The notes under the pieces: model-generated | What the model saw: the letters and a program-made list of their open reading frames with translations, nothing else | The model's database searches: none | What the model was told of the DNA's origin: nothing | Part shown: one piece after another, positions 5,104 to 64,000 of the stretch | How the letters are laid out: each line of letters opens with the position of its first letter | Numbering within the stretch: position 1 is the first letter of the stretch | Source: Bacteroidales bacterium | Lineage (GTDB): Bacteria; Bacteroidota; Bacteroidia; Bacteroidales; UBA3663 | Reading direction: 5' to 3' | DNA: 64,000 nucleotides | Assembly: GCA_017519885.1 (NCBI GenBank) | Contig: JAFWRO010000018.1 | Span: forward strand, 3,325 to 67,324 | Translations under genes and position numbers: made by a program

Positions 5104-5225
5104 AAAGGTTCTGAAAAGTTTAGAAAAGTTCGAAAGGTTCACCCTTCAGAACATCTCAGAACCCTTCAGAACATCTCAGAACCCTTCAGAACATCTCAGA
5201 ACCCTTCAGAACATCTCAGAACCCC
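5104..5225. repeat. inverted phased-repeat element: G-rich arm (GGTTCTGAAAA GTTTAGAAAA GTTCGAAAGG) followed by four perfect 20 bp units ACCCTTCAGAACATCTCAGA
   Basis: Direct reading shows 5141-5220 is 4 x 20 bp with no mismatch. The left arm 5104-5140 is the approximate reverse complement type. Confidence 0.9.
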
Positions 5226-5232
5226 TTTAAAA

Positions 5233-6648
5233 GTGAATCAAAACGCACAACGCATCAGGTATATCATTGGCGACCTGCTGGCCACTGCAGCCGGCTGGTT
5301 GAGTTTCTACATATACCGATTTGATGTCACAGGCTTCCTTACCGTACCGACGCTTTATGAATACCTGACGTTGCCGCAAGTCGAACTCAACCTGATACTT
5401 GGTCCTTTTGCCTGGTTGGCGCTCTATGCATTTTCGGGATACTACCAGAACCCCTATTTCAAATCGCAGACCGACGAACTGCAGGTGACGTTCTGGTCGG
5501 TCATTGTCGGCACCCTGGTGGCATTCTTTGCCATGGTGATCGATGATGTGCCTTTCATCAACGACGAGGATATCGCCGTGCTGAAGATTGTCCACATCTC
5601 GCCCAAGACCTATCTGCAGATTCTACTGACTTTGTTCGGCTGCATCTTTGTCCCTGTCTACCTGGTGCGCTATCTGATCACACATCACGTCAATGGACAA
5701 ATCCAGAACGGACGTCTTGGCCTTCGAACCCTGCTCATCGGCGAGGGCAAGGCGGCACAATTGCTGCAACGGGAGCTGAAGGCTGAAAAACGGCAGAATG
5801 GTTATCTTATCATCAAGACAGTGCCCGACACAGCCAGTTACGAGGAGATACGGAAAGTGGTCGATGAAAACCACATCGAAGCCTTCCTCCTCGCCCCAGA
5901 CCAACACGATGTGCGCATCATCAACCATCGTGTCTATGAACTCCTGCCCCTCGAACTGCCCATCCGCATGAAGGCCAGCAACGAGGAGATTCTCAACGGA
6001 CAGGTTCACACTGACTCGCTGACCACCTTGCCCATGATGCAATACAGCACCGACCTGCTGAGCCCCTTCAAACGCAACCTGAAACGTCTTGCCGACATCA
6101 TCAGTGCCGTCTTGGCGCTCATCCTCCTGTCGCCGCTCTTCCTCATCGTGGCCATCATCATCCGTCGCGATTCAAAGGGCCCTGTATTCTTCAGCCAATG
6201 GCGCATCGGGCGTTCAGGCAAACCATTCCGCATCATCAAGTTCCGATCGATGCGCACCGATGCCGAGCAGGATGGTCCACGTCTCTCTTCGACCATGGAC
6301 CGACGCATCACTAAAGTGGGACGCTATCTGCGCAAATACCGCATCGACGAACTGCCGCAGTTCTGGAATGTACTGAAGGGCGATATGAGCCTCGTAGGGC
6401 CACGTCCCGAACGCGACTACTACATCCGCCAGATCATGGACATCGCCCCCTACTATTCGAAACTCCTACAGGTGCGTCCAGGCATCACTTCGTGGGGTAT
6501 GGTCAAGTACGGATATGCTTCCACGGTCTTCCAAATGGTCGAACGCATGCGCTACGACCTGATGTATATCAATAACTGCTCCTTAGCCGTCGATTTGAAG
6601 ATCCTTGGCTTCACGGTTCGCACGGTACTCACGGGGAAAGGGATCTAA
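5233..6648 (+). CDS. polyprenyl glycosylphosphotransferase (bacterial sugar transferase, WbaP/EpsB-like initiating enzyme)
   Basis: The C-terminal domain carries the sugar-transferase signature FRSMRTDAE...DELPQFWNVLKGDMSLVGPRPE, with N-terminal TM helices. The start is set at in-frame GTG 5233 (VNQNAQRIRYIIGDLL). The 44 codons from ATG 5101 are made entirely of the repeat element, which has no stop codon in any forward frame. Confidence 0.75.
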   Translation: MNQNAQRIRYIIGDLLATAAGWLSFYIYRFDVTGFLTVPTLYEYLTLPQVELNLILGPFAWLALYAFSGYYQNPYFKSQTDELQVTFWSVIVGTLVAFFAMVIDDVPFINDEDIAVLKIVHISPKTYLQILLTLFGCIFVPVYLVRYLITHHVNGQIQNGRLGLRTLLIGEGKAAQLLQRELKAEKRQNGYLIIKTVPDTASYEEIRKVVDENHIEAFLLAPDQHDVRIINHRVYELLPLELPIRMKASNEEILNGQVHTDSLTTLPMMQYSTDLLSPFKRNLKRLADIISAVLALILLSPLFLIVAIIIRRDSKGPVFFSQWRIGRSGKPFRIIKFRSMRTDAEQDGPRLSSTMDRRITKVGRYLRKYRIDELPQFWNVLKGDMSLVGPRPERDYYIRQIMDIAPYYSKLLQVRPGITSWGMVKYGYASTVFQMVERMRYDLMYINNCSLAVDLKILGFTVRTVLTGKGI

Positions 6649-6742
6649 GGGGTTCGAAGGCTTCGAGAGGTTCGAAGGGTTCGAGAGGTTCGAAGGGTTA
6701 AGAGCGGTTAAGAAGGGTTAAGAAGCAGCCATGTTTGGCTGC
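6640..6742. repeat. phased-repeat array (GGTTCGAAGG / CTTCGAGAG / GGTTAAGAAG units) ending in hairpin GCAGCC-ATGTTT-GGCTGC
   Basis: About 8 degenerate 9-11 bp units lie directly after the stop codon at 6646-6648. The 6 bp stem hairpin is at 6725-6742. Confidence 0.85.
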
Positions 6743-6770
6743 TGAAAAACGAGGCAAAGAAAGAATCGAA

Positions 6771-8696: not shown

Positions 8697-9482
8697 ATGA
8701 AAAAGACAATCACCCGCATCAGCGCAGTGCTCATCCTCCTTGCAGTGGGCATCACATCGGTCATTGCCCAACCCAGCCGTCATCATCATCGTGCAGGCTA
8801 TCGCAGCGATGGTTTCATCCGTGGCGTGCGCGACGTTCACACTGTGGCCAGTACTGCCATGTTGGGCTACGGCATCGCATCTTTGGACGACTATACGGGC
8901 ATCCGTTTCGGTTATAATGCAGCCTCGCTCCGTACCGACGGCTTCGACGACGTGTCAAGCGACGTCCAGTCGGGTGCCAGTGTCGGCATCGTCTTCGGCT
9001 GGTATCTCGGCAAAACTCCCATCATCATCGAGCCTGGCCTCTACTACTCTTTCAAAGGTGGCAAACTCGATGGCTTTGAGCGCCAATATGATTCACGTAC
9101 TCGTCTGAAGACCAATATGCATATGTTCGAAATCCCGCTCGTCTTCAAGTATGAAGTGCAGTACCACAATGCCGGTGTTTGCCTCCATCCCTTCTTCGGC
9201 GGCTTCCTGGCCTTCGGCATCGGCGGCAAAACCAAGAGTGTGGAAGGCAACTACACTGACAGTTGGGATACCTTCTCTGATGGAGCTGGCCAACTCGGAC
9301 GCACCGACGCAGGTCTCCGTATGGGATGCGGCCTCGGAGTGGATCACTTCTTCCTTGAATTGGCCTACGACTGCGGTCTTGTCAACCTGGCCAGCGACCA
9401 ATACGACTACTTCGGCTTCAACAATTACGACAGCGCCATCCGAAGCAACACCATCAGTTTCAGCTTAGGATTCAACTTCTAA
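8697..9482 (+). CDS. outer-membrane beta-barrel (porin-family) protein
   Basis: Signal peptide MKKTITRISAVLILLAVGITSVIAQ, alternating aromatic/Gly-rich strands and a C-terminal ...SFSLGFNF typical of OM beta-barrels. Confidence 0.6.
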   Translation: MKKTITRISAVLILLAVGITSVIAQPSRHHHRAGYRSDGFIRGVRDVHTVASTAMLGYGIASLDDYTGIRFGYNAASLRTDGFDDVSSDVQSGASVGIVFGWYLGKTPIIIEPGLYYSFKGGKLDGFERQYDSRTRLKTNMHMFEIPLVFKYEVQYHNAGVCLHPFFGGFLAFGIGGKTKSVEGNYTDSWDTFSDGAGQLGRTDAGLRMGCGLGVDHFFLELAYDCGLVNLASDQYDYFGFNNYDSAIRSNTISFSLGFNF

Positions 9483-9663
9483 GTTCTAAGGGATATTAAG
9501 GGATTCTAAGGGATTCTAAGAGATTTTGAGGGACAAATGTTTCTTGGCCCCCGAACTCTACAGGCGCTTCTCTCGGACGTGACCGAACGGAAACAAGGTA
9601 TCGTCCCTTAATATCCCCTAATATCCCTTGACATCCCTTCATATCCCTACTAATATCCCCTTA
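9483..9663. repeat. composite inverted-repeat element: GGGATTCTAAG-type array, ~78 bp core, inverted array (CCCTTAATATC type)
   Basis: The left arm is 9483-9533 and the right arm 9603-9663, reverse-complementary in type. Core termini GGGACAAATGTTT (9530-9542) and AGGTATCGTCCC (9596-9607) recur inverted at 62311-62358. Confidence 0.85.
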
Positions 9664-9673
9664 ACGCACAACC

Positions 9674-10426
9674 ATGATCATCTCTCTTCACGTCGAATAC
9701 AACGCACAATGGGGCGCACAACTTTATGTTACCACAGGCATCAAGCCGAAGTTTGCGCAGAAACTTCCTAAAGATGCCATCGAAATGGACAATGATGGCC
9801 GCGGCAACTGGTTTGTCGATGTCGATGCCAAACGGTTGACGAGCACGCCCTATCACTATGTGCTGGCCTATCAGCGTAGTGTAGTTCGCAACGAGTTCGG
9901 CAACGGCCACTTCATTGCAGGCATCACTGAAGCCGAAGGAGTTCCTACCCTCCGTGTCTGGGACAGTTGGCGAAGACTGCCTCAGATTCGCAGTTTTTTC
10001 TCCCTCGCCTTCCGTCCGCACAAGCGCGACAAATCGATTATGCACGACCAGCCCTTCCCTGCCGTCGATATGCTCGATCCCGATCAGTTCACCATGGTCT
10101 GTGAAGCCGGCAATCTCAAGGACGAGTGGGAACTTGCCCTCATCGGCAACGTTCCTGAACTCGGAGCCTGGCAACCCGAGAAAGCCCTGATCATGCAACA
10201 AATCAGCCGCAACCTTTGGAGCGTCAGTTTCTCACGCAATACGCTGAAGTTCCCGCTGCGCTTCAAGTTCATCGTCGTGAGTCGTCGCACCCATCAGTTT
10301 GTGGCATGGGAAGACTGCACCAACCGATTCTTCGAACCCAGTGTTCTGGATCCGGGCGACTCGCTGCTCATCTGCAACCAGCGCTTCACACGTCCCGCCT
10401 TCGATGACAAGAATGACAACCGATAA
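9674..10426 (+). CDS. stand-alone tandem CBM20-like (starch/glycogen-binding) protein with no catalytic domain
   Basis: The second half (LALIGNVPELGAWQPEKAL...LWSVSF...FKFIV) fits the CBM20 pattern. The overall layout resembles the N-terminus of Bacteroidota 4-alpha-glucanotransferases. There is no signal peptide. Confidence 0.6.
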   Translation: MIISLHVEYNAQWGAQLYVTTGIKPKFAQKLPKDAIEMDNDGRGNWFVDVDAKRLTSTPYHYVLAYQRSVVRNEFGNGHFIAGITEAEGVPTLRVWDSWRRLPQIRSFFSLAFRPHKRDKSIMHDQPFPAVDMLDPDQFTMVCEAGNLKDEWELALIGNVPELGAWQPEKALIMQQISRNLWSVSFSRNTLKFPLRFKFIVVSRRTHQFVAWEDCTNRFFEPSVLDPGDSLLICNQRFTRPAFDDKNDNR

Positions 10427-11150: not shown

Positions 11151-11199
11151 TTTCTCTAGATTATCTAGAGGCTCTAGAAAGTCTAGAACATCTAGAACC
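11151..11199. repeat. phased-repeat array of TCTAGA-type units (TTCTCTAGA TTATCTAGAG GCTCTAGAAA GTCTAGAACA TCTAGAACC)
   Basis: Five 9-10 bp units lie directly after stop codon 11145-11147. Confidence 0.85.
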
Positions 11200-11202: not shown

Positions 11203-11241
11203 AAAAAAAGCTCTGAAGAAATTTCTCTTCAGAGCTTTTTG
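11203..11241. terminator. bidirectional intrinsic terminator
   Basis: 10 bp stem AGCTCTGAAG/CTTCAGAGCT (11209-11218 and 11227-11236) with an 8 nt loop, an A7 run upstream and a T5 run downstream. Confidence 0.8.
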
Positions 11242-18077: not shown

Positions 18078-19019
18078 ATGCTCTGGCATTTGTTGGCACT
18101 TCTCGTAGCCTGTATATGGGGCAGCACCTTCGTCGCTTCGAAGGTGCTGCTCAATGCCGGATTGAACCCAGCCGAGATCATGTGCCTGCGATTCATCCTC
18201 GCATGGGTGCTGATGCTGCCGTTGTCCCTGGGCCGACGGAAACGCAGACAGCGCTCCGCCAGGGACGTGCTTTGGGACGAGTTCCTGTTCATCATCCTCG
18301 GTCTTACCGGCGGTTCGCTCTATTTTCTGTCCGAGAACACTGCCGTGAAGCTCACTTCGGCCACTTCGACAGTCGCCCTGATTGTGGGAACGACGCCCAT
18401 TGTCACTGCTCTGATGAACCGAATGGTGCATCATGACGAACATCTCTCCAACCGGTTTCTGGGTGGGTCGCTCGTGGCGGTTATCGGCGTCGCCCTGGTA
18501 GTTTTCAATGGTGTCTTCGTCCTCGACGACGACCCGCTGGTCATTCTTCTCTCGTTTGCAGCAGCAGTAAGCTGGGGCTTCTATAGCCTCGTCATCCGCA
18601 ATGTCGAGCGCCGTCACAGCTCCATCACCATCACGCGCAAGGTATTCTTCTGGGGCGTCATCACCATGCTCCCCACCTGCATCTGGAACATGTATCACAA
18701 CGAAAGCCAGCTTTGCGCACTCGGTCAGGCTGCTGGCGCTCCCGTGGCAGGCTGGTCGCTCCTGCTCCAGCCCACCGTGTTCGGCACGCTGTTCTTCCTC
18801 GGGCTCATCGCCTCGTTCGGCTGTTTCCTACTCTGGAACATTGTCCTCAGGCGCATCGGCATCATCGCAGCAGGCAATTATCTTTACTTCAATCCCGTCA
18901 CTTCACTCATCGCCGCCTATCTGGTGCTCAGCGAGCGCATCACATGGCTCGCCATCCTCGGTTGTCTGCTCACCATCGTCGGCGTTTATCTCTGTAATCA
19001 TGGCAGTACCAAGCATTAA
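18078..19019 (+). CDS. DMT-superfamily (EamA-like) transporter
   Basis: About 10 TM helices in two EamA-like halves. The N-terminus is LLALLVACIWGSTFVASK. Confidence 0.8.
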   Translation: MLWHLLALLVACIWGSTFVASKVLLNAGLNPAEIMCLRFILAWVLMLPLSLGRRKRRQRSARDVLWDEFLFIILGLTGGSLYFLSENTAVKLTSATSTVALIVGTTPIVTALMNRMVHHDEHLSNRFLGGSLVAVIGVALVVFNGVFVLDDDPLVILLSFAAAVSWGFYSLVIRNVERRHSSITITRKVFFWGVITMLPTCIWNMYHNESQLCALGQAAGAPVAGWSLLLQPTVFGTLFFLGLIASFGCFLLWNIVLRRIGIIAAGNYLYFNPVTSLIAAYLVLSERITWLAILGCLLTIVGVYLCNHGSTKH

Positions 19020-19056
19020 ATCCCTGATTGTCGATGCCCTCATTGGCAAGATAGAT

Positions 19057-19545
19057 ATGATGCGCGTAAAACGCGAGTTCATATTGGAGAAATTCATCAA
19101 GATACACAAGCCTGTAAACCTGCGCGGAATTCCGCGCAGTCACACGCCCTACGACGAATTCGTGCAGAGCCTCTATCGCCTTGGGGTGACACAGGATGAG
19201 CTTGAGCAATGGGACCAGGCTTGGGAAGAGCTGGTGCATACGTGCGAGAAGCGCGCCAAGAAGCGTGCGCTCAATGAGGTCAGCATCGAGACCCTCCTCA
19301 AGGCAAAGCTCAAGGGCACGGACATCCGCTATCACATGCGCAAGCAGCAGTATCGTGTCGCCCTCACCCTCACCATGGGCCACTACACCCAGGCAACCTT
19401 CTACATCCAGCACAGCAAGTTCCGCGAACAGCTCGACATGGTGCTACCTGCAGTCAACCAACTCAACCAGCTGATGGACGAACTTGGCCAACCCATCCGT
19501 GTCCGTAACCGCGACTATCACATCAACTGGAATGAGCCGGAATAA
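19057..19545 (+). CDS. hypothetical protein (162 aa, helical and charged)
   Basis: Only an open frame after the EamA stop supports it, and I recognise no family. An alternative ATG at 19000 would overlap the transporter gene. Confidence 0.4.
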   Translation: MMRVKREFILEKFIKIHKPVNLRGIPRSHTPYDEFVQSLYRLGVTQDELEQWDQAWEELVHTCEKRAKKRALNEVSIETLLKAKLKGTDIRYHMRKQQYRVALTLTMGHYTQATFYIQHSKFREQLDMVLPAVNQLNQLMDELGQPIRVRNRDYHINWNEPE

Positions 19546-19572
19546 ACTCGCAATACCTTTATAATATATTAA

Positions 19573-19617
19573 AGGAACAGGAATCGTCCTATACAAGAGA
19601 GGGCAATTCCTGTTCCT
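19573..19617. terminator. hairpin between convergent genes
   Basis: 12 bp stem AGGAACAGGAAT/ATTCCTGTTCCT with a 21 nt loop and A/T-rich flanks. Confidence 0.5.
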
Positions 19618-19636
19618 AAATTTATACAATTATTGA

Positions 19637-26508: not shown

Positions 26509-26590
26509 TGGTTGCTCACTTCGTTGCGCGCGAGCAAAGCTCGGAGCGAAATGTTCGAAATGTTTGAAATGTTCGAAGAGTTCGAAAGGT
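26509..26590. repeat. repeat element between susC and susD: conserved core (GGTTGCTCACTTCG..GCGCGCGAGCAAAGCTCGGAGCGAA) plus TTCGAA-type phased array
   Basis: The core 26510-26550 matches 35081-35121 (24 of 25 identical in the 3' block). The array ATGTTCGAA ATGTTTGAA ATGTTCGAAG AGTTCGAAAGG occupies 26551-26590. Confidence 0.85.
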
Positions 26591-29557
26591 TTAATGGAAT
26601 CGTAGCGTTACACCAAGACTGAGCTGGGTAGCCTGTGGATAGGCACTGTTGGAATCTACACCTGGGGTGATGCCGGTCGAAGGTACAATCGAAGGATCGT
26701 TGCCCTCGTACGAGGTGAGGGTGAACAGGTTCTTGGCAGTCAGATAGACGCGAAGGCTCTCGACGATTTCGCGCTTCTTGGGGGTATAGTTGTAGCCGAT
26801 GGTCACGTTGTCGAACTTGAAGTAGTTGCCGTTCTCAAGGAAGTAGCTCGAGATGATGCCGCCGCTCGAGTGGACATCCTCATACTTGGTATAGGCTGTG
26901 CGGAGCACGTTGTCGGTGCCTGCACCCTGCAGACCCATGCCGTACTTGCGCATGTTGAAGATGTCGTAGCCCAATGTGCTGCGGAACAGCATGCTCAGAT
27001 CCCAGTTCTTGTACTTGAACGAGTTGCTCCACGAAAGGAAATGCATGGGTGCACCATTGCCGATGTGGCGCTTGTAGCTGGGGTCAGCCTGCGAGGCAGG
27101 AACCTTGTTGCCGTCGTTGTCGAAGACAAGGAGAAGGCCGTTCTCATCGATGCCGGCATGCTCATAGCCATAGAACTGGCCGATCTTGCCGCCTTCCTCC
27201 ACGCGGAAGAAGTATTCGCTCGAACCTGGTCCTGGCTTGCGGTAGAGGTCGAGGTAAGCCATCTGATAGACGTCGCTCGAAAGCTTGGTGAGCTTCGTTT
27301 CGCCCATGCTCCAGTTGATGCCGGCGGTCCATTTCACGGCTGTCTTCGAAAGCACATCGTAGTCAAGTGAAATCTCGACACCGGTGTTCTTGGTCGTGCC
27401 CACATTCACGAGGATGTTGCTGTAGATGAATGGAGGCTGGGGAGCGGTATAGCTGTAGAGAAGGTCCTGCGAACGACGGTCGAACCACTCGACGCTACCA
27501 CGCAGACGGCTGTGGAGTGCCACGAAGTCGACACCGACGTTGAAGGCGGTCGATTTCTCCCAGGCCAAGTCGGGGTTAGCATTGAGCGAAGGTGCATAGC
27601 CGTTGATCCATTCTCCGTCCACGAAGTAGGCACCATAGTTGCTGTAGGTGGCAAGCGACTGGTAGGCACCGAAGTCCGAACGTCCCGTCACACCGTAGGA
27701 GATACGGGGCTTGAGGCTCTGGAAGATCTTGCTCACGCCCTTGGCAAATGGAGTGCGGGTGATTTCCCAGGCCACCGATGCCGATGGGAAGTTACCCCAC
27801 TTGGTGTTGGCACCGAACTTGGTGCTGCCTTCACGACGCATCGAGGCCGAAAGGAAGAGCATGTCGTTGTAGTTGTAGTTCAAGCGTCCGAAGAAGCCGA
27901 TCAGGGTCGATTCCGAGGCACCTGCCCAGAGGCTTGCCTTGCCTTCCTGCAGTGCGGTACCGTTGCCGATGCCGTACCAGCCCATCGAGTCATAGACGAA
28001 GTCCTTGTTCTCGTTGCCGCTCTGCTCCCAGTTGCTGCGCTCCCACGAATAGCCGAGCACGAGCTTGATCTGGTGCTCGTCGAGGTTCAGGGCGTAGTTG
28101 GTAAGCCATTCCAGGCGGTTGGTCCACCACTTCTGGTAGTTGACGTTGGCACGTCCGTCATAGCCGTTCCAGAACGATTCGCTCGAAGTGGAGGGTGTAT
28201 AGAAGTTGCTCTTCAGGTCGTTGTATTGCAGCGCATAGCTGAGCGAGGTGTTCAGCATGTGACGCTCGGTCTGAAGGATGTTGAGCTTCACGTCGGTATT
28301 GCCCAAAAGGTAAACGCGGTCGCCTTCGTTGATGTTTTCCCTCAGGTCGTTCACCGGGTTATGGATATCTGTAGGCGAATTGGGCTGATAGTAGGTTCCG
28401 TCGGGGTTCTTGACGGGAATGGTGGGGTTCATCGTAAGGGCGGTGTCAAAAAGGCCGTCGTTGCCCCAATCCTCGTGTACCCTGCGGCCCGAGAGGGATG
28501 CATTGAACTGCAGGCGGTTGTTGAGCACGCGCTGCTCGCCCACGAAACGTGCACCGTATTCCTTGCGCCCGCTGACGATGTCCAGACCGTTGCCCTGCTT
28601 GTAGTTGAGCGAAACGCCGAAGAAGCCGTTCTTGGTCGAGCTGTCAATCGAGAGATACTGGTTGAGGTTGTAGCTTGCTGCACGGGTGATCTCGTCCCAC
28701 CAGTCGGTGTCGCCACCGTAGTCCTGTCCACGGCGAGAACGACGGAACTCCTCGGTAGTGAGGATGCCCGGCTTCGGCTTGGCAATGTTGAGGGCTACAT
28801 AGCTGTCATAGGTCACGTTGGTGACGCCTGCTGTGCCCGAACCCTTCTTGGTGGTCACGAGGATGACGCCGTTGGCACCACGTGTGCCGTAGATGGCTGC
28901 CGAACCGGCATCCTTCAGTACGGTAATCGACTCGACGTCCTGGGTGGCGATGTTGCGGAGGTCACCGCCTGCAATGCCGTCAATCACGATGAGTGGGCCG
29001 TTGGAGGCTGTCAGCGAACCTGCACCACGCACCTGGATTTCAGTGGTGGCATTCGGGTTGGCTTCGGCAGTTGCTGCAACGTTAAGACCTGTCACCTTGC
29101 CGGCAATCAGCGCCATCGGGTCGCTGGCTGCACCCTGGTTGAAGTTCTCCTTCGAGATCTGAACCACCGAGCTCGAGATCTCCTTCTTGGCCATCGAACC
29201 GTAGCCCACTACGACTACTTCGTTCAGCTGGGCAACGTCTTCGCTCAATGTAACGGTCATACCGTCCTTGGCAGGAACTTCCTGGGGGTCGAAACCGATG
29301 TAGCTGATCACAAGGGTGCTGCCCTCGTTGCACTTCAACTGGAAGTTACCGTCGAAGTCTGTCACTGTTCCGTTGGTTGTTCCTTTCACCAGGACACTTG
29401 CGCCAATGATGGTCTCGCCTGTGTCGTCAACAACCACGCCATTGATGGTGGTCTGTGCCGAAACATCCAAGGCAAAAAACACGATCGCCAGCATTAGGAC
29501 GATTCTGAGGCTTGCGCCCATTCCCAATCGACGGGAATACTCAAATGCTTTTTCCAT
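26591..29557 (-). CDS. susC: SusC/RagA-family TonB-dependent outer-membrane transporter
   Basis: N-terminal carboxypeptidase-regulatory-like domain (ING.V.D..GE.IIGASV.VKGT.NG..TD.DG.F), a plug domain and a C-terminal barrel ending ...LGVTLRFH. Confidence 0.9.
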   Translation of the reverse strand: MEKAFEYSRRLGMGASLRIVLMLAIVFFALDVSAQTTINGVVVDDTGETIIGASVLVKGTTNGTVTDFDGNFQLKCNEGSTLVISYIGFDPQEVPAKDGMTVTLSEDVAQLNEVVVVGYGSMAKKEISSSVVQISKENFNQGAASDPMALIAGKVTGLNVAATAEANPNATTEIQVRGAGSLTASNGPLIVIDGIAGGDLRNIATQDVESITVLKDAGSAAIYGTRGANGVILVTTKKGSGTAGVTNVTYDSYVALNIAKPKPGILTTEEFRRSRRGQDYGGDTDWWDEITRAASYNLNQYLSIDSSTKNGFFGVSLNYKQGNGLDIVSGRKEYGARFVGEQRVLNNRLQFNASLSGRRVHEDWGNDGLFDTALTMNPTIPVKNPDGTYYQPNSPTDIHNPVNDLRENINEGDRVYLLGNTDVKLNILQTERHMLNTSLSYALQYNDLKSNFYTPSTSSESFWNGYDGRANVNYQKWWTNRLEWLTNYALNLDEHQIKLVLGYSWERSNWEQSGNENKDFVYDSMGWYGIGNGTALQEGKASLWAGASESTLIGFFGRLNYNYNDMLFLSASMRREGSTKFGANTKWGNFPSASVAWEITRTPFAKGVSKIFQSLKPRISYGVTGRSDFGAYQSLATYSNYGAYFVDGEWINGYAPSLNANPDLAWEKSTAFNVGVDFVALHSRLRGSVEWFDRRSQDLLYSYTAPQPPFIYSNILVNVGTTKNTGVEISLDYDVLSKTAVKWTAGINWSMGETKLTKLSSDVYQMAYLDLYRKPGPGSSEYFFRVEEGGKIGQFYGYEHAGIDENGLLLVFDNDGNKVPASQADPSYKRHIGNGAPMHFLSWSNSFKYKNWDLSMLFRSTLGYDIFNMRKYGMGLQGAGTDNVLRTAYTKYEDVHSSGGIISSYFLENGNYFKFDNVTIGYNYTPKKREIVESLRVYLTAKNLFTLTSYEGNDPSIVPSTGITPGVDSNSAYPQATQLSLGVTLRFH

Positions 29558-29574
29558 TGTTTTGGGTTTTAAGT

Positions 29575-29653
29575 CAATAATAATTGTTAGTTATATGTTA
29601 TATGTCAATTATCAATTGTTAATTATCAAATGTTAATTATTTATTGTTAATTG
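29575..29653. repeat. AT-rich phased array of TTGTTAATTG-type units
   Basis: AATTGTTAG TTATATGTTA TATGTCAATT ATCAATTGTTAATT ATCAAATGTTAATT ATTTATTGTTAATTG lies between the GH97 stop and the susC start. Confidence 0.75.
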
Positions 29654-31753: not shown

Positions 31754-31761
31754 CAAAGATA
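31754..31761 (-). promoter_or_regulatory. Bacteroidota -7 promoter box (TAtcTTTG on the minus strand) for the PUL operon
   Basis: Plus strand CAAAGATA, about 85-100 nt upstream of the susB start. Confidence 0.55.
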
Positions 31762-31936
31762 TAGGGTTTTATGATAGCTTCCAAACGCATCAAAGTAAAA
31801 TCAAAGTAATCTGTAAATATAAACTATTGATTATCAGCATTGACAATTTATTCGTTCAAGATAAGAATCTAAATGTTTTCAATCCGTAATTCCCCTCTTT
31901 TTCGCGCTAAAATTTGGAGAATATTATTTTATTTCG

Positions 31937-34972: not shown

Positions 34973-34975
34973 GGG

Positions 34976-36248: not shown

Positions 36249-36301
36249 AACAACGCATATAATTATCGTTAATTTTGGTTACATACTTAATTATTTACGG
36301 T

Positions 36302-37353: not shown

Positions 37354-37361
37354 CAAAGATA
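37354..37361 (-). promoter_or_regulatory. Bacteroidota -7 promoter box (TAtcTTTG on the minus strand) for fmt
   Basis: Plus strand CAAAGATA, about 53 nt upstream of ATG 37301. Confidence 0.5.
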
Positions 37362-37467
37362 CGCGTTTTGCTGCAATTTTCCAAATTTTTGAAAAGAAAA
37401 AAAATGAACCGCAACGTGGATGGCCCATCATTGCGGTTCACATTATTCAAGTCAGGAAGTAATCGAA

Positions 37468-48582: not shown

Positions 48583-48647
48583 TATAATTGTTATTTGTTA
48601 ATTGTTAATTAATAATTGTTATTTGTTAATTATTAATTGTTAATTGA
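48583..48647. repeat. AT-rich phased array of TTGTTAATTG-type units
   Basis: ATAATTGTTATTTGTTAATTGTTAATTAATAATTGTTATTTGTTAATTATTAATTGTTAATTG includes an internal ~32 bp near-duplication. Confidence 0.8.
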
Positions 48648-52226: not shown

Positions 52227-54722
52227 TTATTCCTGCATTTGGCTTATTTTCCTCGACAACTCTGCCGCAGGATTAATCACCTCAATCTGCATCGACTTGG
52301 GAGCCGTGTATTCTATCTTCCACTGATTGTCCTCAATCCACCAATGCACCTTCAATGGGCCTTTTGGAGTCTGGTAGCTGACGTTGCAATCGGTCACACC
52401 ACCCACGGGATACGGAGCGATAAGCACGCGCTGCCAACCCACACTGCCTTCCTGCTGACGTATGCCGCCGATGTAGCCATAGAGCCACTCCATGATGTGG
52501 CCGAGCATCAGGTGATTGTTCGACACACGCTCCAGTCCCTGCCAACTCTCGGTAAGCGTCGTTGCGCCATTCTTGAGCTGGATGCCATAGCCAGGCACAT
52601 CGTCGCGACTGTTCATGGCATAAATCACATCGTTGCGTCCAGCTTGGGCCAGAACCTGCAGTAAGTAACGATAGCCCACGTCACCTGCTGTAATCACTGT
52701 CGGCCCATTCTCGCCCCATTCATAAAGGCTGTCCACCTTGTTGTCAATGGCATAAAGCCTACCTTCCACATCTCGTACGATGTTGTCCAGCACACCAGCG
52801 CGATACGCTTCGGGCACCAGCCCCATATAGAGGCTGATGGCATTGGCCGTCTGCGAATTGCGGTCGTAACTGCACGATTCGACGTTGAAGAACTTGGCAT
52901 TGTAAGCCGTGCGTATCGAGTCAGCCAAGGCTTCATACTGGGAAGCCACCGATGGAAGTTCAAGCACACGTGCCATCTTCGCCATCAGTGTCACATCATA
53001 ATAATAGGTAGCCGTGGCCGTAACGCCCTGCGTAGTGAGCTGCGCATAACCCGGTTGCTTGGGTCCAAGGTCGTACCAGTCGCCCAATCCATAGTCCAGG
53101 ATATATCCATTCTTGCGGGCACGACGCGAAAGGTATTCAATATACTTCTGCATGGCATCGAAATGCTCGCGGAAGAGTTCATCCGAACCCGTCCACTCAT
53201 AATGGTACCACGGGCAGATGATGAAGGCCGATCCCCATTCGGGTGTATCGTCGAAGTTCCATCCGAAGTTGGTGTAATAAGGTGCGATGGTAGGTATCAT
53301 TCCCTCAAGGTCATGTCCTTCCTTGATCCAAGGTGTCGATTCTGCGCCATAGCCCAAGGTCTGTCCTTTCACGAACTGCGAAGCCGCCATATCGTTCATC
53401 AGTTTGCGATAGAGTGGAGTGAGGTTGTAGCGATAATACATCGAAGGCATCATCAGGTGATCCTGCTCCAGCCAACCCAGTTTCTCACGATGTGGACAAT
53501 CGGTGGGCACGCTCTGCAGATTCGAACGGATGGCCCAGTCGATGAACTGATGCACCTGGTTCAGGTATTCGTTGTTGCACTTGAAGGTTCCTGCCTCCTT
53601 CGAGGCACAGGCACTTGTCGTATGCTTTGCCACAAGCGTCTCTATCACCGGCAAACCCGACGGATTGGCCTCTCCTGCCGGCACTGCGCCATGCACTTGT
53701 ACATATCTGAAGCCCGTATAACTGAACTTGGGTTCCACGGTCTCCATCTGCTGATTGCGCAGCGTGACGTGATATTCCCAATCGCCCACAGGTTTGTTGT
53801 AGGCATTTCCATCCTTGTCCTTCAGTTCTGCAGGGATGAAAGCCACCTCCTGGCCTTCTGCTCCCTTCATGGTTGCTTCCATGATGCCGCTCATGTTCTG
53901 GCCAAAGTCATAGACCCAATCACCCGATGGTGTTTGCCATTTAGCCACTGGATTGAATTTGCCCCAGACGACGAGTTCCGTTCCCTTCTGTTCACGCAAA
54001 GTCGGACCATTGACACCCACGACGATGGCAGGACGCCAATTCGGGTCGATTCTCAAGTCCACATCCTCGCCTCCATAGATGCTACTAAAGGTGATCTGGC
54101 TTTCGCCCACGCTCCATTCTCCATTCGTGACGATGTTGTCGTCGCGACCTTGCGTGTATTCCAGATGTAGGCGCAGACGCAACTTCGGCGCCCCATACGT
54201 GCCGACGAGCTTGTTGTATCTTCCACGTGGAACATTGTAGAATCCGCCGCCAAGTTCCACGCGAAGCTCGTGTTCGCCTCGCTTGATGCGATGGGCAAAT
54301 TCGGCCACTACGTTGTCGGCATCTTCCTTGAACCAGCGTGTCACATCGAATATCACGTAGAGTGCCTCCTTGTCATAAAGTGTCCATCCCGGGTCGAGGA
54401 AGTGGTCACCCACCTTCTGTCCATCCAGATAGACGTTAAAGTGTCCGAGGCCACAGACGTAGAGCGTGGCTCGATAGACGTTCCTTCGCGCCTTGAATTC
54501 GCGCATGAAGACGGGCATTGTGTATTCGCCCACCTTGCGATCCCCCAGGACTTTCTTGGCAAAAGGTGCATGAATCAGAGGTGCGACCACCGTGTCAGTT
54601 TCCTCCATACTGATCCAAGCGGCAGCATCGAGCATCCCGACATCAGCCTTTGCACTGAAGCAAAAGAGCATCGCAAGCAAAGTGATGAGGAGATGAAGTT
54701 GTGTGGTGATGATTTTTTTCAT
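52227..54722 (-). CDS. GH78 alpha-L-rhamnosidase, secreted
   Basis: Signal peptide, then an N-terminal rhamnosidase domain pattern (LYVCGLGHFNVYLDGQKVGDHFLDPGWT.Y) and a (alpha/alpha)6 region with DCPHREKLGWLE. ATG 54722 forms an ATGA overlap with the upstream stop. Confidence 0.8.
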   Translation of the reverse strand: MKKIITTQLHLLITLLAMLFCFSAKADVGMLDAAAWISMEETDTVVAPLIHAPFAKKVLGDRKVGEYTMPVFMREFKARRNVYRATLYVCGLGHFNVYLDGQKVGDHFLDPGWTLYDKEALYVIFDVTRWFKEDADNVVAEFAHRIKRGEHELRVELGGGFYNVPRGRYNKLVGTYGAPKLRLRLHLEYTQGRDDNIVTNGEWSVGESQITFSSIYGGEDVDLRIDPNWRPAIVVGVNGPTLREQKGTELVVWGKFNPVAKWQTPSGDWVYDFGQNMSGIMEATMKGAEGQEVAFIPAELKDKDGNAYNKPVGDWEYHVTLRNQQMETVEPKFSYTGFRYVQVHGAVPAGEANPSGLPVIETLVAKHTTSACASKEAGTFKCNNEYLNQVHQFIDWAIRSNLQSVPTDCPHREKLGWLEQDHLMMPSMYYRYNLTPLYRKLMNDMAASQFVKGQTLGYGAESTPWIKEGHDLEGMIPTIAPYYTNFGWNFDDTPEWGSAFIICPWYHYEWTGSDELFREHFDAMQKYIEYLSRRARKNGYILDYGLGDWYDLGPKQPGYAQLTTQGVTATATYYYDVTLMAKMARVLELPSVASQYEALADSIRTAYNAKFFNVESCSYDRNSQTANAISLYMGLVPEAYRAGVLDNIVRDVEGRLYAIDNKVDSLYEWGENGPTVITAGDVGYRYLLQVLAQAGRNDVIYAMNSRDDVPGYGIQLKNGATTLTESWQGLERVSNNHLMLGHIMEWLYGYIGGIRQQEGSVGWQRVLIAPYPVGGVTDCNVSYQTPKGPLKVHWWIEDNQWKIEYTAPKSMQIEVINPAAELSRKISQMQE

Positions 54723-55876
54723 ATTTTCCAAAGATTAAAGATTCTCCAAAAGAAGTGATAGAGGCGGAACAGTGGTTCCCAAAATCCCTCGCTGGGATAA
54801 TAGCAGGCAAAGACAAAATTGCGCCTAGTTTTTCGCCAATAACGACGCATCGAAGCCTGGCGGCTCAGTTTTTCCTTGTCGTAGCGTGTGTCGAAATGCC
54901 CGAAGTTGCCGGCCTGCATGATTTCGCTGAGCAACGACAAACCTTCCTTGCGACGTGGGGCGCAGTAGAGTTCATCCTCCTTCATACCAAAAACTTCGCG
55001 CATCACATACATCACGGCACCAGCCAATGGCTCGAGCTTCAGGGTCTTGATCATTGCCAGGAGGTCATCATATCTAGATATTCTAGAGTCTCTAGATTCT
55101 CTAGAAGTTCTAGGATCTCTAGACGAAGTCTCCTTATTCAGCGCGTCCAGGACGAAATAATAGTCCATCATCTGCCTCAACCCGATTCCTTCCTCAAAGA
55201 TGTGCTTATAGATGTGGAGAAGCTGATAGAGTGCATTAAACTGGAGAGTTGGCACAGCTACCAGCTTGTCTCCCATCTTGACCTTATGCTGCATCTGCTC
55301 TTCGCGCTGCTTCTCGTACCATGCATTGAGCTTTCGATTGAGGAATGGATTGTTCAGATAGACAGGCGAAAAGTGGATCTCCACCTCTGCATCGTCGAAT
55401 AAGGGATATTCGATGTGATGGAAGCGCAGGAAAGCATTCGGGAAACGCTTTCTGACATACTCCACCACGCGGCGCTTGGGTTGGTGGGTGGGATTGTCGT
55501 GGGGCAAGGTCCAGATGTCGATATCTCCCACCTGACGTTGCGAAGATAATTCGCCATAGAGCAATGCGTTGCCCTGTCCCTTGAGCAGGCATGCATCAAA
55601 GCCCTCCTGGGCCAAGTGCTCATGGATCTGCGCACTTCGTTCCGAGAGCAATTTGTTGCGCTCGGCAATACGTTGCGATTCCCAAATCCAGTCGATCAGA
55701 TTCTGTTCATCAGGCCACTGGTCTTTGGGCAGTCGCTTTACAGCTGCATAGCATATCCCTTGCAGCGATTGCTGCTCCGACAGCTGATGCAGATGCTGCC
55801 ACTCCGATGCACTCGGCGTCATCGACAGTCGCTCGCGACGCCCCAAAGCGACCTGAAGAAGTTCGAAAATCAGCAT
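54719..55876 (-). CDS. uncharacterised nucleotidyltransferase-family protein (NTP_transf_5-like) with an in-frame repeat insertion
   Basis: The N-terminus LLQVALGRRE...EW..L...S..Q.L.G and the GDIDIW motif are typical of this capsule-locus family as I recall it. SSRDPRTSRESRDSRISR is encoded by the TCTAGA array. Confidence 0.55.
   Translation of the reverse strand: MLIFELLQVALGRRERLSMTPSASEWQHLHQLSEQQSLQGICYAAVKRLPKDQWPDEQNLIDWIWESQRIAERNKLLSERSAQIHEHLAQEGFDACLLKGQGNALLYGELSSQRQVGDIDIWTLPHDNPTHQPKRRVVEYVRKRFPNAFLRFHHIEYPLFDDAEVEIHFSPVYLNNPFLNRKLNAWYEKQREEQMQHKVKMGDKLVAVPTLQFNALYQLLHIYKHIFEEGIGLRQMMDYYFVLDALNKETSSRDPRTSRESRDSRISRYDDLLAMIKTLKLEPLAGAVMYVMREVFGMKEDELYCAPRRKEGLSLLSEIMQAGNFGHFDTRYDKEKLSRQASMRRYWRKTRRNFVFACYYPSEGFWEPLFRLYHFFWRIFNLWKI
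55071..55125. repeat. phased-repeat array of TCTAGA-type units inside a CDS
   Basis: TATCTAGA TATTCTAGA GTCTCTAGA TTCTCTAGAA GTTCTAGGA TCTCTAGAC is read in the TCT-AGA frame on the minus strand, so no TAG or TAA codon arises. Confidence 0.85.
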
Positions 55877-58575: not shown

Positions 58576-58576
58576 G

Positions 58577-61292: not shown

Positions 61293-62255
61293 TTAACTAT
61301 TTTCCATCGCCCATTTGCGATAGCGAATCCAAACGTGGAGCCAGACACGAGCTATGGAATCGATGGCATCAGACATCAACAGGGTGCAATATTCCTGGAA
61401 ACGCTTGGCTTCTCCAGTCTTTGAATAGTTTTTCCATGTCGTATCCTTGAAACCCTTGGGGAACATCTGATATGCCAACAGATAGGAATATTCGGTGATG
61501 GTGCTCATATAGGTCCAGGTGCTGGATCCTTCCTGTCCCCAGCTATAGTCAAACGGACGCTCCAGAAGCTTCTTCTCCACGGCTTCAATCATCGGTGAAA
61601 GCGTCTCCTTCATAAGAGGATAACCATCGGAATCGTAGAAGAAACGGGAGTTTCGCTTGTCAATCTCGTAGGAGGCATCGACATAATTCTCCCACTGCTT
61701 CTCCACATCGGCATGTATCTTACCCAACGAACGTGCATCACAATGAAGCGGCATATGCGCGTCGGCGATGTAGTGACTCATGATGAAGAAACGCATAGCC
61801 ATATGATTGGCCGATGGAGAAAGTGGGTTGCCTTTTTCCTCGCGTGTCAGAATCTTGAAGTTATCGACGATGGTATGAGCCATAGCCTCGCAACGGTCGC
61901 AGAGGTCACCTTTCACGATACCGAATTCCTTCTTATAAAGATCGGATTCTGCCTTCATCAGATTATAAACCTCCATGGTGTCAGGCAGAACCTTGAAGCG
62001 AAAGTCCGTTATGTCCGACTCGACGGGCTCATATTTGACGCCATGACTTTTGCCCATATCGCAAAAGACAGCATCGGGATACCATGCACCCTGCATAACG
62101 AAGTCGCGATAATTCATAAACCAGCGGACGAGGCTCTTGGCATATTCAGCGATAGGCACAGCCGATTCTCCACTTCCATAATACTCGGGAATATTTGCCT
62201 TATCGAGGCGCTTGACGGCCATAAAGGCCAACCATGCATGTGTGAACTTTTTCAT
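61293..62255 (-). CDS. cytoplasmic zinc-dependent phospholipase C / P1-nuclease superfamily-like protein
   Basis: There is no signal peptide. The N-terminal THAWLAFMA, WYPD and SHYIADAHMPLHCD segments parallel the Bacillus cereus PLC motif LHYLGDVNQPMHA. Confidence 0.55.
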   Translation of the reverse strand: MKKFTHAWLAFMAVKRLDKANIPEYYGSGESAVPIAEYAKSLVRWFMNYRDFVMQGAWYPDAVFCDMGKSHGVKYEPVESDITDFRFKVLPDTMEVYNLMKAESDLYKKEFGIVKGDLCDRCEAMAHTIVDNFKILTREEKGNPLSPSANHMAMRFFIMSHYIADAHMPLHCDARSLGKIHADVEKQWENYVDASYEIDKRNSRFFYDSDGYPLMKETLSPMIEAVEKKLLERPFDYSWGQEGSSTWTYMSTITEYSYLLAYQMFPKGFKDTTWKNYSKTGEAKRFQEYCTLLMSDAIDSIARVWLHVWIRYRKWAMENS

Positions 62256-62269
62256 AGTAGTAATAAATT

Positions 62270-62396
62270 GGGGATATTTGGGGATATTAAGGGATATTTG
62301 GGGATATTAAGGGACGATACCTATGCTTTGCCAACATGGGACTCAAAAACATTTGTCCTTTCAAATCCCTTAAAGTCCCTTAGAATCCCTTATAAT
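62270..62396. repeat. composite inverted-repeat element, second copy and opposite orientation to 9483-9663
   Basis: The left arm is (GGGATATTTGGGGATATTAA) x2. The core carries GGGACGATACCT (62311-62322) and AAACATTTGTCC (62347-62358). The right arm is TCAAATCCCTTAAAGTCCCTTAGAATCCCTTATAATC. Confidence 0.85.
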
Positions 62397-62405
62397 CATT
62401 CATTT

Positions 62406-63419
62406 TTATTCCTCTTTTTCCTCTTTTTCGTCGAAAATCTCCTTGCCGTTGTACAATTCCTGAACCTTCTTATAGGGGTTCCAGCTATGGAAGTCCATCC
62501 AGACATTGAGCCAGGCGCGAGCAATGGAGTCGATGGCATCCGACAAGATCATAACGCTGTATTCCTCGAAATGCTTCTTAAAGACATCGGTTTCCTTATA
62601 GTCCTTCCAACCCATATCTTCGAAGTCGGCAGGGACCATCTCGTAAGACATCAGATAGGAGCGTTGGGTCACAGCTCTCATATAGTCATACAGATTACTG
62701 TTTTTACTTCCCCATCCGGGGACAAACTCCCGGCTGAGTATTTCATCTTCTACCTTTCGAAGCAAACGAAAAACCCTGTCTGCCTTCTTCGGATAACCAT
62801 TACGGTCGTAGAAGAATCGCTGGTTGGGCAAATCCATCTTGTACGAACGACGAACAGCACATTCCCAAAAACTGCCGATGCAATTCTGGAGACGATGCAA
62901 CTGACGTGCATCGCAATGCATTGGCATATGGCCATCGGCAATGTAGTGCGCCATCATGAAGAAGCGCATTCCCAAATGATTGGCCGAGGGAGGAATGGGA
63001 TTGCCCTTTTCCTCACGGAACTGAATCTTAAAGTTGTCGTAGATGGTGTGATACATCGCATTGCAGCGGTCGCACAGGTTGCCCTGCACCAATGAGAAGG
63101 ACTTCTCCTTATAGAGTGTCGAGTTCTTTTTCACAAACTTATCCACTGCCATACCCTGAGGCAACGCCTTGAATGGCGAGGTTTCGCCGACCTTTTCGGT
63201 AGGGACATACTTGGCGACATGGCTCGTTTCCTGATCGTCGAACACGAGGTTGGGATACCACGCTCCTTGAATGACGAAATCGCGATAGCTCATAAACCAA
63301 TCGACGAGGCTCGAAGCTTCCTTGGCAAGTTCCGGGCCTTTTTTGCCTGTAAACAGCTCTGGCTTGCTCAGGCGCTTGATTGCCATAAAGGCCAACCAAG
63401 CCAATGTGTACTTTTTCAT
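62406..63419 (-). CDS. paralog of the PLC-like protein with two putative metal ligands substituted
   Basis: It aligns along the full length of 61293..62255 and retains AHYIADGHMPMHCD. It has TLAW in place of THAW, WYPN in place of WYPD, and an acidic C-terminal tail. Confidence 0.55.
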   Translation of the reverse strand: MKKYTLAWLAFMAIKRLSKPELFTGKKGPELAKEASSLVDWFMSYRDFVIQGAWYPNLVFDDQETSHVAKYVPTEKVGETSPFKALPQGMAVDKFVKKNSTLYKEKSFSLVQGNLCDRCNAMYHTIYDNFKIQFREEKGNPIPPSANHLGMRFFMMAHYIADGHMPMHCDARQLHRLQNCIGSFWECAVRRSYKMDLPNQRFFYDRNGYPKKADRVFRLLRKVEDEILSREFVPGWGSKNSNLYDYMRAVTQRSYLMSYEMVPADFEDMGWKDYKETDVFKKHFEEYSVMILSDAIDSIARAWLNVWMDFHSWNPYKKVQELYNGKEIFDEKEEKEE

Positions 63420-63433
63420 AATAGTATTACAAT

Positions 63434-64000
63434 TTATGGGTTATTTGGGGATATATACGACCTATTAAAAACTCTTCCTCCGACCAGCACTGAATAGAAT
63501 CGGGGGAAAAACTTCTGTAGCATCAATGCAATCACGACCAGGCATGCAATCGTGATCCAAGGGGAAACAAGGTATGCGAGCACGCAAATCCATGATGAGG
63601 GATGAACAAGCATTATCAATTTGCCCACGATAAGGAGCAAGGGCAATTGATACAGATAAATGTAAAAGGTGCCTTGGCAAATACAGTCAAGCTTCTTATG
63701 TGATGCCAGAGAGAATGTCTCGGGAACCAATTTATCATAAATTGCCCACATGCTCAAGAGTCCCAAAGCTATCATTGGAATCTCAAAATAGTTCCATACG
63801 TCATTGGGGAAAGCTATTTCGAGAAGACTTACGATCGTATAAAGCAACAATCCTATCGTTGCCCATGAACCATATTGCAACTTTGGCAAAAACCTTGCAC
63901 CAAAACAGAACCAAAAGAATGCCTTGATTGGAAGATATTTGAAGTCGAACAGCGAAACCACGAACAGCAACAGCATCAGAATCTCCCATCCGAACTTCAT
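63434..64000 (-). CDS. C-terminal part of a polytopic membrane protein (acyltransferase-3-like), 5' end truncated by the window edge
   Basis: The frame stays open to the window end and contains 5-6 TM segments. The ATG at 63998-64000 may be coincidental. Confidence 0.4.
   Translation of the reverse strand: MKFGWEILMLLLFVVSLFDFKYLPIKAFFWFCFGARFLPKLQYGSWATIGLLLYTIVSLLEIAFPNDVWNYFEIPMIALGLLSMWAIYDKLVPETFSLASHKKLDCICQGTFYIYLYQLPLLLIVGKLIMLVHPSSWICVLAYLVSPWITIACLVVIALMLQKFFPRFYSVLVGGRVFNRSYISPNNP
63438..63456. repeat. solo GGGTTATTTGGGGATATAT unit pair
   Basis: Same unit type as 62270-62314. It overlaps the last codons of the upstream ORF. Confidence 0.5.

Follow-up and report, generated by a model that had tools for sequence, protein, structure and literature searches.

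The window analysed here is a stretch of 64,000 nucleotides (contig JAFWRO010000018.1, positions 3,325 to 67,324, assembly GCA_017519885.1) from an uncultured rumen Bacteroidales bacterium, whose genome is represented in our data by these 64 kb plus fragments. Gene identities were assigned using Pfam and the genes called on identical metagenome contigs; the best genome match is RUG11585, in which fmt is 95% identical. The subject of this report is a population of short tandem-repeat arrays and foldback elements, most of which lie between genes. Arrays were detected with Tandem Repeats Finder (TRF), which places them at 5103-5224, 6638-6725, 9484-9533 with 9604-9661, 11155-11198, 26547-26591, 34552-34620, 34980-35048, 36303-36333, 55073-55123, and 62268-62314 with 62363-62397. 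For periods of 9-11 nt and their multiples the window contains nine merged arrays at a score of ≥50, against a mean of 0.05 and a maximum of one in 100 dinucleotide shuffles. TRF recovered an array at each place listed in the original prediction, which had been made from the sequence alone, and the total is far above that of the shuffled controls. We reject chance or an assembly artefact on the strength of this control, the recurrence of identical arrays across independent assemblies and the arrays found in orthologues. The features are as follows.

5103-5224, no strand assigned: E1 (site A1), a foldback array between the stop codon of the Sua5/YciO gene (5096) and the likely GTG start (5232) of a sugar transferase gene; the left arm (5103-5140) has GGTTCTGAAAA-type units and the right arm (5141-5224) is a perfect 20-mer repeated 4.2 times in the opposite orientation.
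6638-6725, plus strand: A2, a direct array of GGTTCGAAG/GGTTCGAGA 9-mers followed by GGTTAAGAAG 10-mers, starting at the transferase stop codon.
9484-9661, plus strand: E3, a composite filling the spacer between the outer membrane protein (OMP) and CBM20 genes, with a left arm at 9484-9533 (GGGATTCTAA units), a core at 9531-9607 (GGACAAATGTTT...GGTATCGTCC) and an inverted right arm at 9604-9661.
11155-11198, no strand assigned: A4, in which the hexamer TCTAGA occurs five times at 9-nt spacing and the 3-nt linkers are unrelated.
26510-26591, minus strand: A5, a GC-rich hairpin core (26510-26546, ..GCGCGCGAGCAAAGCTCGGAGCGAA) and an array of five GTTCGAAAT units.
29566-29652, no strand assigned: an A+T-rich array of 7/14-nt units (TGTTAATTATCAAT) filling the GH97-susC spacer, with a second copy at 48584-48646.
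34552-34620, minus strand: A6, a period-9 array in the coding sequence (CDS) of a phosphoribosyltransferase (PRTase)-like protein, encoding LSNPSNFSNLSNPSNPS just before the motif LLIDDAIDTG.
34980-35130, minus strand: A7, a GGTTAAGAAG/GGTTCTGAAG array (34980-35048) with two GC-rich hairpin cores (35049-35125), filling the GT2-PRTase spacer.
36303-36333, minus strand: A8, an array of the heptamers GTTTAGA/GTTGAGA, taking in the final codons of fmt and its stop.
55073-55123, minus strand: A9, an in-frame run of six TCTAGA(+N3) units within the NTP_transf_5 gene, with (SRx)n as the encoded peptide.
62268-62397, minus strand: E10, a composite of arm (62268-62314), core (62315-62362) and arm (62363-62397), homologous to E3 and in the opposite orientation in the window.
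63438-63456, minus strand: a remnant of about two units (GGGTTATTTGGGGATAT), supplying the C-terminus and stop of the upstream gene.

Only ~6% of the window (3.8 kb) is intergenic, and ~29% of this intergenic DNA is array or element. Twelve of the 14 arrays or elements are intergenic, in keeping with the proposal that they sit at gene boundaries; that proposal fails for the two period-9 arrays at 34552-34620 (PRTase-like) and 55073-55123 (NTP_transf_5), which lie in frame within coding sequences. Arrays occupy 10 of 40 co-oriented spacers, one convergent spacer and none of the three divergent ones. Every intergenic GC-type array begins at the upstream stop codon or ≤8 nt from it, and in several cases (fmt; the gene ending at 63434) the array itself supplies the stop codon or the last codons. 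A 617-nt convergent spacer at 19020-19636 carries no arrays and no gene matching Pfam; the overlapping open reading frames (18601-19545, plus strand; 18970-19413, minus strand) are unassigned.

Bacteroidetes-type promoter motifs are found upstream of operons at 31754-31785 and 37354-37385, both on the minus strand, and a scan of all window arrays revealed no -33/-7 motif inside them. The arrays in the susC/susD spacer (filled by A5, and served by the operon promoter at 31754-31785) and in the GH97/susC, fmt/GT2 and GT2/PRTase spacers are therefore intra-operonic, as had been proposed for susC/susD and GT2/PRTase, and would be co-transcribed with their neighbours. A promoter or terminator function was rejected, since no array holds a -33/-7 motif or an intrinsic terminator. 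The sole true terminator near an array (11205-11240) is located downstream of A4, which lies between it and the DUF4923 stop codon.

At 5101-5231 the E1 array forms an open reading frame that runs without a break into the sugar transferase gene, and for this reason the gene callers on identical contigs alternate between a 515-residue (L183/L185) and a 471-residue (L181/L182) transferase model; the first 44 residues of the longer model are encoded by the array.

Reading of the sequences and unit logos reveal three unit families. The first, of the type GTT[C/T](T)GA (GGTTCGAAG, GGTTTGAAG, GGTTCTGAAG, GGTTAAGAAG), is found at 5103-5224, 6638-6725, 26547-26591, 34552-34620 and 34980-35048, and the heptamer GTTTAGA at 36303-36333 is related to it. 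The second, GGGAT(A/T)(T/C)TAA, makes up the arrays at 9484-9661 and 62268-62397 and the remnant at 63438-63456. The third, TCTAGA+N3, is present at 11155-11198 and 55073-55123. In the logos a unit consists of a palindromic core of 6-7 nt (TTCGAA, TTCTGAA, TTAAGAA; ATATTAA/ATTCTAA; TCTAGA) and a 3-nt linker, so that the period is 9 or 10 nt and the helical phasing is a by-product. The original prediction had described one loose design with a G run, repeated at about one helical turn; instead there are three families, of which TCTAGA+N3 has no G run, and the period is set by the length of core plus linker rather than by the helix. At 36303-36333, included among the 9-11-bp arrays in that description, the period is actually 7. 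The GGTTCGAA units recall the tRNA T-loop, a likeness that we take to be coincidental.

The A+T-rich heptamers (TGTTAAT/TATTAAT) belong to a unit family of their own and are positioned in the same way, the copy at 48584-48646 filling the 48651/48582 spacer, likewise intra-operonic. Such arrays recur in related genomes (L011, 9196-9227; L098, 1792-1825 and 3421-3453). The fmt-GT2 spacer (36135-36253) has inverted A+T-rich 10-nt arrays, two copies of CGAATTATCG facing three of AATTCATGTC, with 42-nt arms that are 81% complementary; these are absent from L011 and L012.

The clearest evidence for the behaviour of the arrays comes from strains of the same species. Contigs with 1-3 substitutions in ~9.8 kb differ in length solely by the loss of 20 or 40 nt at 5141-5180 and of 18 nt at 6651-6668, and strains sequenced over the fmt region (L004/L007) lack 20 nt of A7 at 35005-35024. 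Among strains that are 99.8-100% identical outside indels, whole-unit steps are the only type of indel: unit number changes far faster than point substitutions accumulate. Of the readings offered in the original prediction, that of slippage-prone variable-number tandem repeats (VNTRs) is the one these losses bear out, and in comparisons of orthologous spacers both the presence and the unit number of the arrays vary. In strains of 96% identity A2 is shorter by 39 nt, A4 is down to two CTAGA units, and the E3 core has been rewritten with its arms unchanged; in one of them (L187) units of 9 nt and GGTTTGAAG type make up both arms at the A1 site, compared to 10-nt units in the window. From these unit-step changes and the concerted replacement of units it follows that the arrays mutate at a very high rate and that the units of one site are homogenised. 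E10 differs from its orthologue in L096 by 11% within the element and by 3% in the flanks.

Selection on E3 was considered because the element is 100% identical in a 97% strain, and was rejected, as this identity is explained by a block of low divergence extending to the right. Over the region compared in one 97% strain (L094; 9029-9790), divergence is ~13% in the 3′ half of the OMP gene (9029-9479) and ~0.7% to the right of 9480. This switch falls exactly at the left edge of E3, and possibly represents a recombination breakpoint at the array.

Relatives with conserved synteny were compared at the same junctions. In L100, where the CBM20 protein is 86% identical, the Sua5 and transferase genes overlap (ATGA) and the OMP-CBM20 spacer measures 13 nt, compared to 135 and 191 nt in the window; the transferase-ClC spacer is 9-10 nt in L100 and L101 and 86-122 nt in the window. 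With these three sites (A1-A3) filled in the window and empty in L100, no unambiguous direct repeat was found that could be a target-site duplication. The GT2-PRTase spacer is 7-11 nt in L013 and L014, 32-40 nt with three units in L011 and L012, and 162 nt in the window, with at least 10 units and two hairpin cores; the three-unit arrays are intermediates between the short and the 162-nt spacers. L012 has an array related to A6; L011, L013 and L014 lack one. At the A8 site L011 has a longer array, and in L012 the genes abut with no array. The A4 site of L101 holds six TCTAGA/CCTAGA units with different linkers. Regulatory spacers conserved in the relatives (the SecDF promoter, ClC-OMP) contain no arrays.

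More distant relatives carry unrelated arrays or hairpins at the same junctions, an example being L103 (CBM20 68% identical), and these unrelated repeats indicate independent colonisation. In L103 a foldback of GATTGAACA-type units (5710-6000) occupies the OMP-CBM20 junction and heptamer arrays (GTTATTA/GTTAAGA; 2874-2920) the transferase-ClC junction.

The TCTAGA arrays are a special case. All 10 TCTAGA sites of the window lie in two arrays. The tetranucleotide CTAG occurs 18 times where 250 are expected (0.07), 11 of the 18 in arrays, which amounts to a depletion of ~14-fold overall and ~35-fold outside the arrays. Every Bacteroidales locus checked, cultured Bacteroides included, has an observed/expected ratio for CTAG of 0.0-0.27. 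Across 33 units from five genomes the information content is 1.6-2.0 bits at the hexamer positions and 0.2-0.3 bits in the linkers. The array comprises 4-7 units in four NTP_transf_5 orthologues (75-100% identical), and its Ser-Arg is written TCT AGA in 41/44 codons, both codons being rare (8.8% of Ser, 7.6% of Arg). Outside the array none of 67 Ser-Arg pairs in the window is written TCTAGA, and conserved Ser and Arg residues elsewhere retain their codon only 53-62% of the time. Because the hexamer is kept and the linker is free at the nucleotide level, neutral slippage alone is insufficient to account for these arrays.

In P0064, a homologue of window 54719-55876 with 59-61% identity, a different repeat (GAAEGPRTGAGEGPKAGAAEGPRTG) occupies the linker position at which the window has (SRx)n; repeats appear to have settled in this loop of the NTP_transf_5 protein more than once. 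Viral contigs also contain TCTAGA-N3 arrays, which were considered and set aside as a different thing, since nearly all are perfect TCTAGAAAA/TTT coding repeats from A+T-rich giant-virus bins. Among the 74 viral stretches collected (L107-L180), mostly from such bins, the arrays are perfect TCTAGAAAA or TCTAGATTT repeats that look coding (KSR in one frame). One viral contig of 52% G+C (L132, 2036-2114) has 8.8 copies of GTTCTAGAT followed by GGGGGTTTGGGGGGTTCTGGG upstream of a gene, and resembles the window arrays.

In line with the hairpin-forming elements suggested in the original prediction, the inverted pairs fold better than shuffled sequences: E3 folds at -59.9 kcal/mol with a z-score of -4.1, and the z-scores of E10 and E1 are -3.3 and -2.6 (-2.7 for E1 as DNA). 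Solo arrays show no significant fold (z -0.7 to +0.1; A2, -0.7), and no structure is predicted for A6 on the mRNA strand. The hairpin at A4 has a z of -2.6 and its L101 counterpart -5.2; a small hairpin (6725-6744) directly follows A2. Within E3 the two arms show 88% complementarity over 26 nt, the arms of E3 and E10 are 80-96% complementary to each other, and the two elements are homologous over the arms and the ends of the core. A metagenome scan with the E3 core matched just three distinct loci in the lineage, namely orthologues of the two window sites and L098, so that the array-core-array composite is known at 9484-9661, 62268-62397 and L098. The L098 copy lies between co-oriented genes, and the orientation of the composite relative to its flanking genes is alike at all three loci. 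Six further matches (L091-type) represent one locus of another organism, within a GNAT reading frame and without flanking arrays; with ~0.4 expected they are likely due to chance.

E10 is flanked by two tandem paralogues (61293-62255 and 62406-63419; 75-85% nucleotide identity) that have no Pfam match. The remnant at 63438-63456, listed earlier as one of the arrays, does contain array units; it amounts to only about two of them, copied with the upstream region of the paralogue during the gene duplication. A GC-rich hairpin core, roughly 35-40 nt per hairpin, is common to 26510-26546 and 35049-35125. At L098 2172-2632, ~8.7 copies of a hairpin-type unit of 42 nt (ATCGAATCATGTCC...GGACATGC) follow one another with a higher-order period of 126 nt, resembling a cluster of the kind formed by bacterial interspersed mosaic elements (BIMEs).

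For a wider view we turned to loci of 80 other Bacteroidales species (L011-L090), 1.45 Mb in total. Short arrays with a period of 7 predominate there (70 arrays), followed by periods of 11 (21), 8 (19) and 22 (13); periods of 9 (five) and 10 (two) rank last, behind 12. Most of the arrays lie outside long reading frames, and 45% abut a stop codon compared to 8% of random intergenic segments (crude gene calls). An order-wide unit design was rejected: the heptamers of the 80 loci do not share a GTTYRA core (3 observed, 2.5 expected), stop codons or YTAR sites beyond shuffled expectation. With the unit cores not shared and the position after stops shared, the design is lineage-specific and the habit of arrays following stops order-wide. 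Some heptamers recur across genomes, AAAGGTG (all rotations) in six arrays and AAAGTCG in four.

We consider it reasonably probable that the arrays belong to a population, specific to this lineage, of foldback elements and hypermutable minisatellites with palindromic units, which have grown by slippage, are sometimes copied and persist where they are tolerated. Growth would proceed by replication slippage, aided by hairpins of the self-complementary units, and new sites would be reached by rare copying of foldback elements, through transposition or ectopic conversion. Survival would be limited to the tolerant places of a compact genome: after stop codons, between co-transcribed genes and, for period-9 arrays, in protein loops. 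Most arrays would then be selfish or close to neutral and would affect mRNA structure as a side effect, and the TCTAGA+N3 family may be under an additional nucleotide-level constraint, either the binding of a factor or a drive favouring intact palindromes. Several points weigh against this account. Slippage itself was not directly seen, and the unit numbers derive from metagenome assemblies, which can collapse repeats, although identical array lengths recur in independent samples. Slippage alone leaves unexplained both the arrival of GTTCGAA-type units at new sites, the interior of a CDS included, and the intact TCTAGA hexamers with randomised linkers. The view is of 64 kb plus fragments, which bears on genome-wide abundance and on any mobilising enzyme. 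The like orientation of the composite at 3/3 loci hints at function or directed insertion.

That orientation is among the observations that would suit selected cis-regulatory arrays, acting as protein-binding sites or as stop-adjacent mRNA hairpins that tune translation, stability or operon ratios, with copy number as a contingency switch. TCTAGA at a fixed 9-nt spacing with free linkers, kept across species despite the purge of CTAG, both after a stop and in a CDS, would fit this as well, as would the persistence of the GT2-PRT, DUF4923 3′ and NTP_transf_5 arrays in species with protein identities as low as 75-88%, and the hairpins beginning ≤8 nt from stop codons. In E. coli, repetitive extragenic palindromic (REP) sequences that lie near a stop codon reportedly lower the translation of the gene upstream. 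We nevertheless regard regulation as an unlikely explanation for the arrays, because sites A1-A3 are empty in a close relative with intact genes and because copy number, unit type and even the core vary among strains that are 96-100% identical. Moreover, the solo arrays occur in either orientation to transcription and are mostly unfolded, their flanking genes are functionally unrelated, and they contain no promoter or terminator motifs. Quite unlikely, in our estimation, is that the arrays are ends or relics of true transposons, of the type of miniature transposable elements with inverted repeats (MITEs) or REP doublets forming hairpins (REPINs), with the enzyme encoded elsewhere and transposition rather than in-situ slippage as the main generator. 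The original prediction had included a reading of this kind, that of hairpin elements like REPs, BIMEs or MITEs, which finds partial support. In its favour are the inverted arms, which fold (z -2.6 to -4.1), the small size without coding capacity, the homologous composites at three loci, the filled and empty sites among related genomes, the GC-rich hairpin cores common to 26510-26546 and 35049-35125, and a CGTC that E3, E10 and L098 have where the core meets the right arm. The reading does not extend to the solo arrays, which are unfolded, nor is there a recognisable target-site duplication between filled and empty sites. No transposase or Y1 (tyrosine HUH transposase) domain was found among the window genes scanned or called, the core scan yields only three distinct loci in the lineage, change in situ is by unit steps, and CGTC has been lost in the 96% strains, which have TGTC instead.

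It is highly improbable that the arrays result from selection for DNA structure, be it curvature from phased A/T tracts or G-quadruplexes from phased G runs. All canonical G3+N1-7 motifs in the 64 kb do lie within arrays (34973; 62270-62281; 9637-9647 on the minus strand) and two A4 tracts spaced by 10 nt are present in the left arm of E1. A quadruplex motif is nonetheless present in only 3/10 arrays, with a mean G4Hunter score ≤0.94, which excludes it as a common property, and the TCTAGA arrays have no G runs. Curvature, proposed earlier as curved or bendable DNA, fails likewise: phased A-tracts are confined to that one arm, 8/10 arrays have none or one A4/T4 tract, and half of the arrays have a period of 9, out of helical phase, and one a period of 7. 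A more speculative idea, to which we attach a slender probability, is that rumen Bacteroidales have a sequence-specific system, a DNA- or RNA-binding, nicking or methyl-directed protein, that recognises short palindromes (TCTAGA, for example) and both builds and maintains phased arrays of them, close behind stops and even within genes, in genomes otherwise purged of CTAG; the stop-abutting arrays of 7, 8, 11 and 22 nt would then be the footprint of related activities with lineage-specific unit lengths. If true, bacteria would possess, in such a palindrome-recognising, array-building system, a way of generating repeats that has so far gone undescribed in them.

The supposition that no described element matches the arrays is upheld by the searches made. 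In the window only tRNA-Pro scores above the Rfam gathering thresholds, and 9440-9700 and 34940-35160 have no Rfam match even at E≤1, ruling out a known RNA family; in the literature we found analogues only and no description of these arrays. The REP, BIME and REPIN sequences of Enterobacteria and Pseudomonas (PMC2817692, PMC3116915, PMC3733652) are similar in being short palindromic extragenic units located mostly in co-oriented spacers, after stops and in operons, in forming inverted pairs that fold as hairpins, and in falling into lineage-specific families. REP palindromes have a conserved GTAG or CGTC tetranucleotide at one end (PMC3733652), which is missing as a conserved head from the window arrays; by reading, neither is present in the GC-rich cores at 26510-26546 and 35049-35125. 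REPs characteristically number hundreds of copies and flank the gene of a cognate Y1 HUH transposase elsewhere in their genome. The window units are 9-10 nt long and arranged head-to-tail, unlike the 20-40-nt REP palindromes of alternating orientation, no REP-associated tyrosine transposase (RAYT) occurs among the window genes scanned or called, and neither the hypervariability in unit number nor the in-frame coding copies are typical of REPs. Of the MITE features, terminal inverted repeats and dispersed copies (three loci, a low number) are seen here, and the target-site duplication is absent at A1-A3.

Closer to home, the BrickBuilt elements of Porphyromonas gingivalis (PMC4596501) share a Bacteroidales host, an intergenic location, a variable number of tandem units and small inverted ends. 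They possess a 23-nt unit in the interior and a unique leader and tail, and lie 49-591 nt from coding sequences (PMC4596501). In the window, by contrast, the arrays themselves are the arms around a small variable core, abut stops, and also occur solo and in genes. Pneumococcal BOX elements are, like BrickBuilt, modular MITEs with minisatellites, intergenic and variable in unit number. The arrays at 34552-34620 and 55073-55123 are similar to the Rickettsia palindromic elements (PMC10969869) in that a palindromic repeat is in frame and translated as an extra peptide; the latter are single elements of 100-150 bp (PMC10969869), whereas the window has arrays of 9-nt units with variable copy number. 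The short tandemly repeated repetitive (STRR) sequences of cyanobacteria and the TAACTGA repeats (PMC4679880) are likewise short intergenic tandem units near CDS ends, absent from the spacers of close relatives and of unknown function. In the TAACTGA repeats, known from Beggiatoaceae, Cyanobacteria and some Bacteroidetes, the unit is fixed at 7 nt and lies mostly just upstream of starts and in one orientation (PMC4679880). Heptamer arrays also occur in the window (36303-36333, 29566-29652) and are the dominant class in the other Bacteroidales loci, but the main window arrays are of 9-10 nt with palindromic cores, abut stops and occur in both orientations.

As in bacterial VNTR and contingency loci, unit-number changes greatly outnumber substitutions between strains; unlike in contingency loci, the steps are of 18, 20 or 40 nt between cistrons, or multiples of 9 in a CDS, with no switching of frame and without involvement of promoter spacing. 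The foldback (FB) transposons of Drosophila have long inverted arms of variable length composed of 10-/20-nt-type subrepeats around a variable or absent centre; they are eukaryotic, kilobase-sized and have a known transposase partner. The resemblance is architectural only, with no evidence of homology. Since the REP head, the MITE target-site duplication and the heptamer features are not found in them, we place the arrays in none of these families. They are the lineage's own form within known bacterial repeat DNA of the REP, MITE and minisatellite kinds, and not a new kind of system.

On the practical side, an array of this kind misleads gene callers on the length of the transferase (471 vs 515 residues), and the arrays are ready-made strain-typing markers for an uncultured rumen species. 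They may also mark recombination breakpoints, and TCTAGA at 9-nt spacing in a CTAG-poor genome offers a handle for seeking a binding or generating factor. If the reading as self-expanding palindromic minisatellites is true, a compact bacterial genome would have been colonised by them over roughly a quarter to a third of its intergenic DNA, including the spacers of polysaccharide utilization loci and biosynthetic operons as well as protein loops. Across the order, short arrays next to stop codons are in excess, which suggests that the phenomenon extends beyond this window and has received little description.

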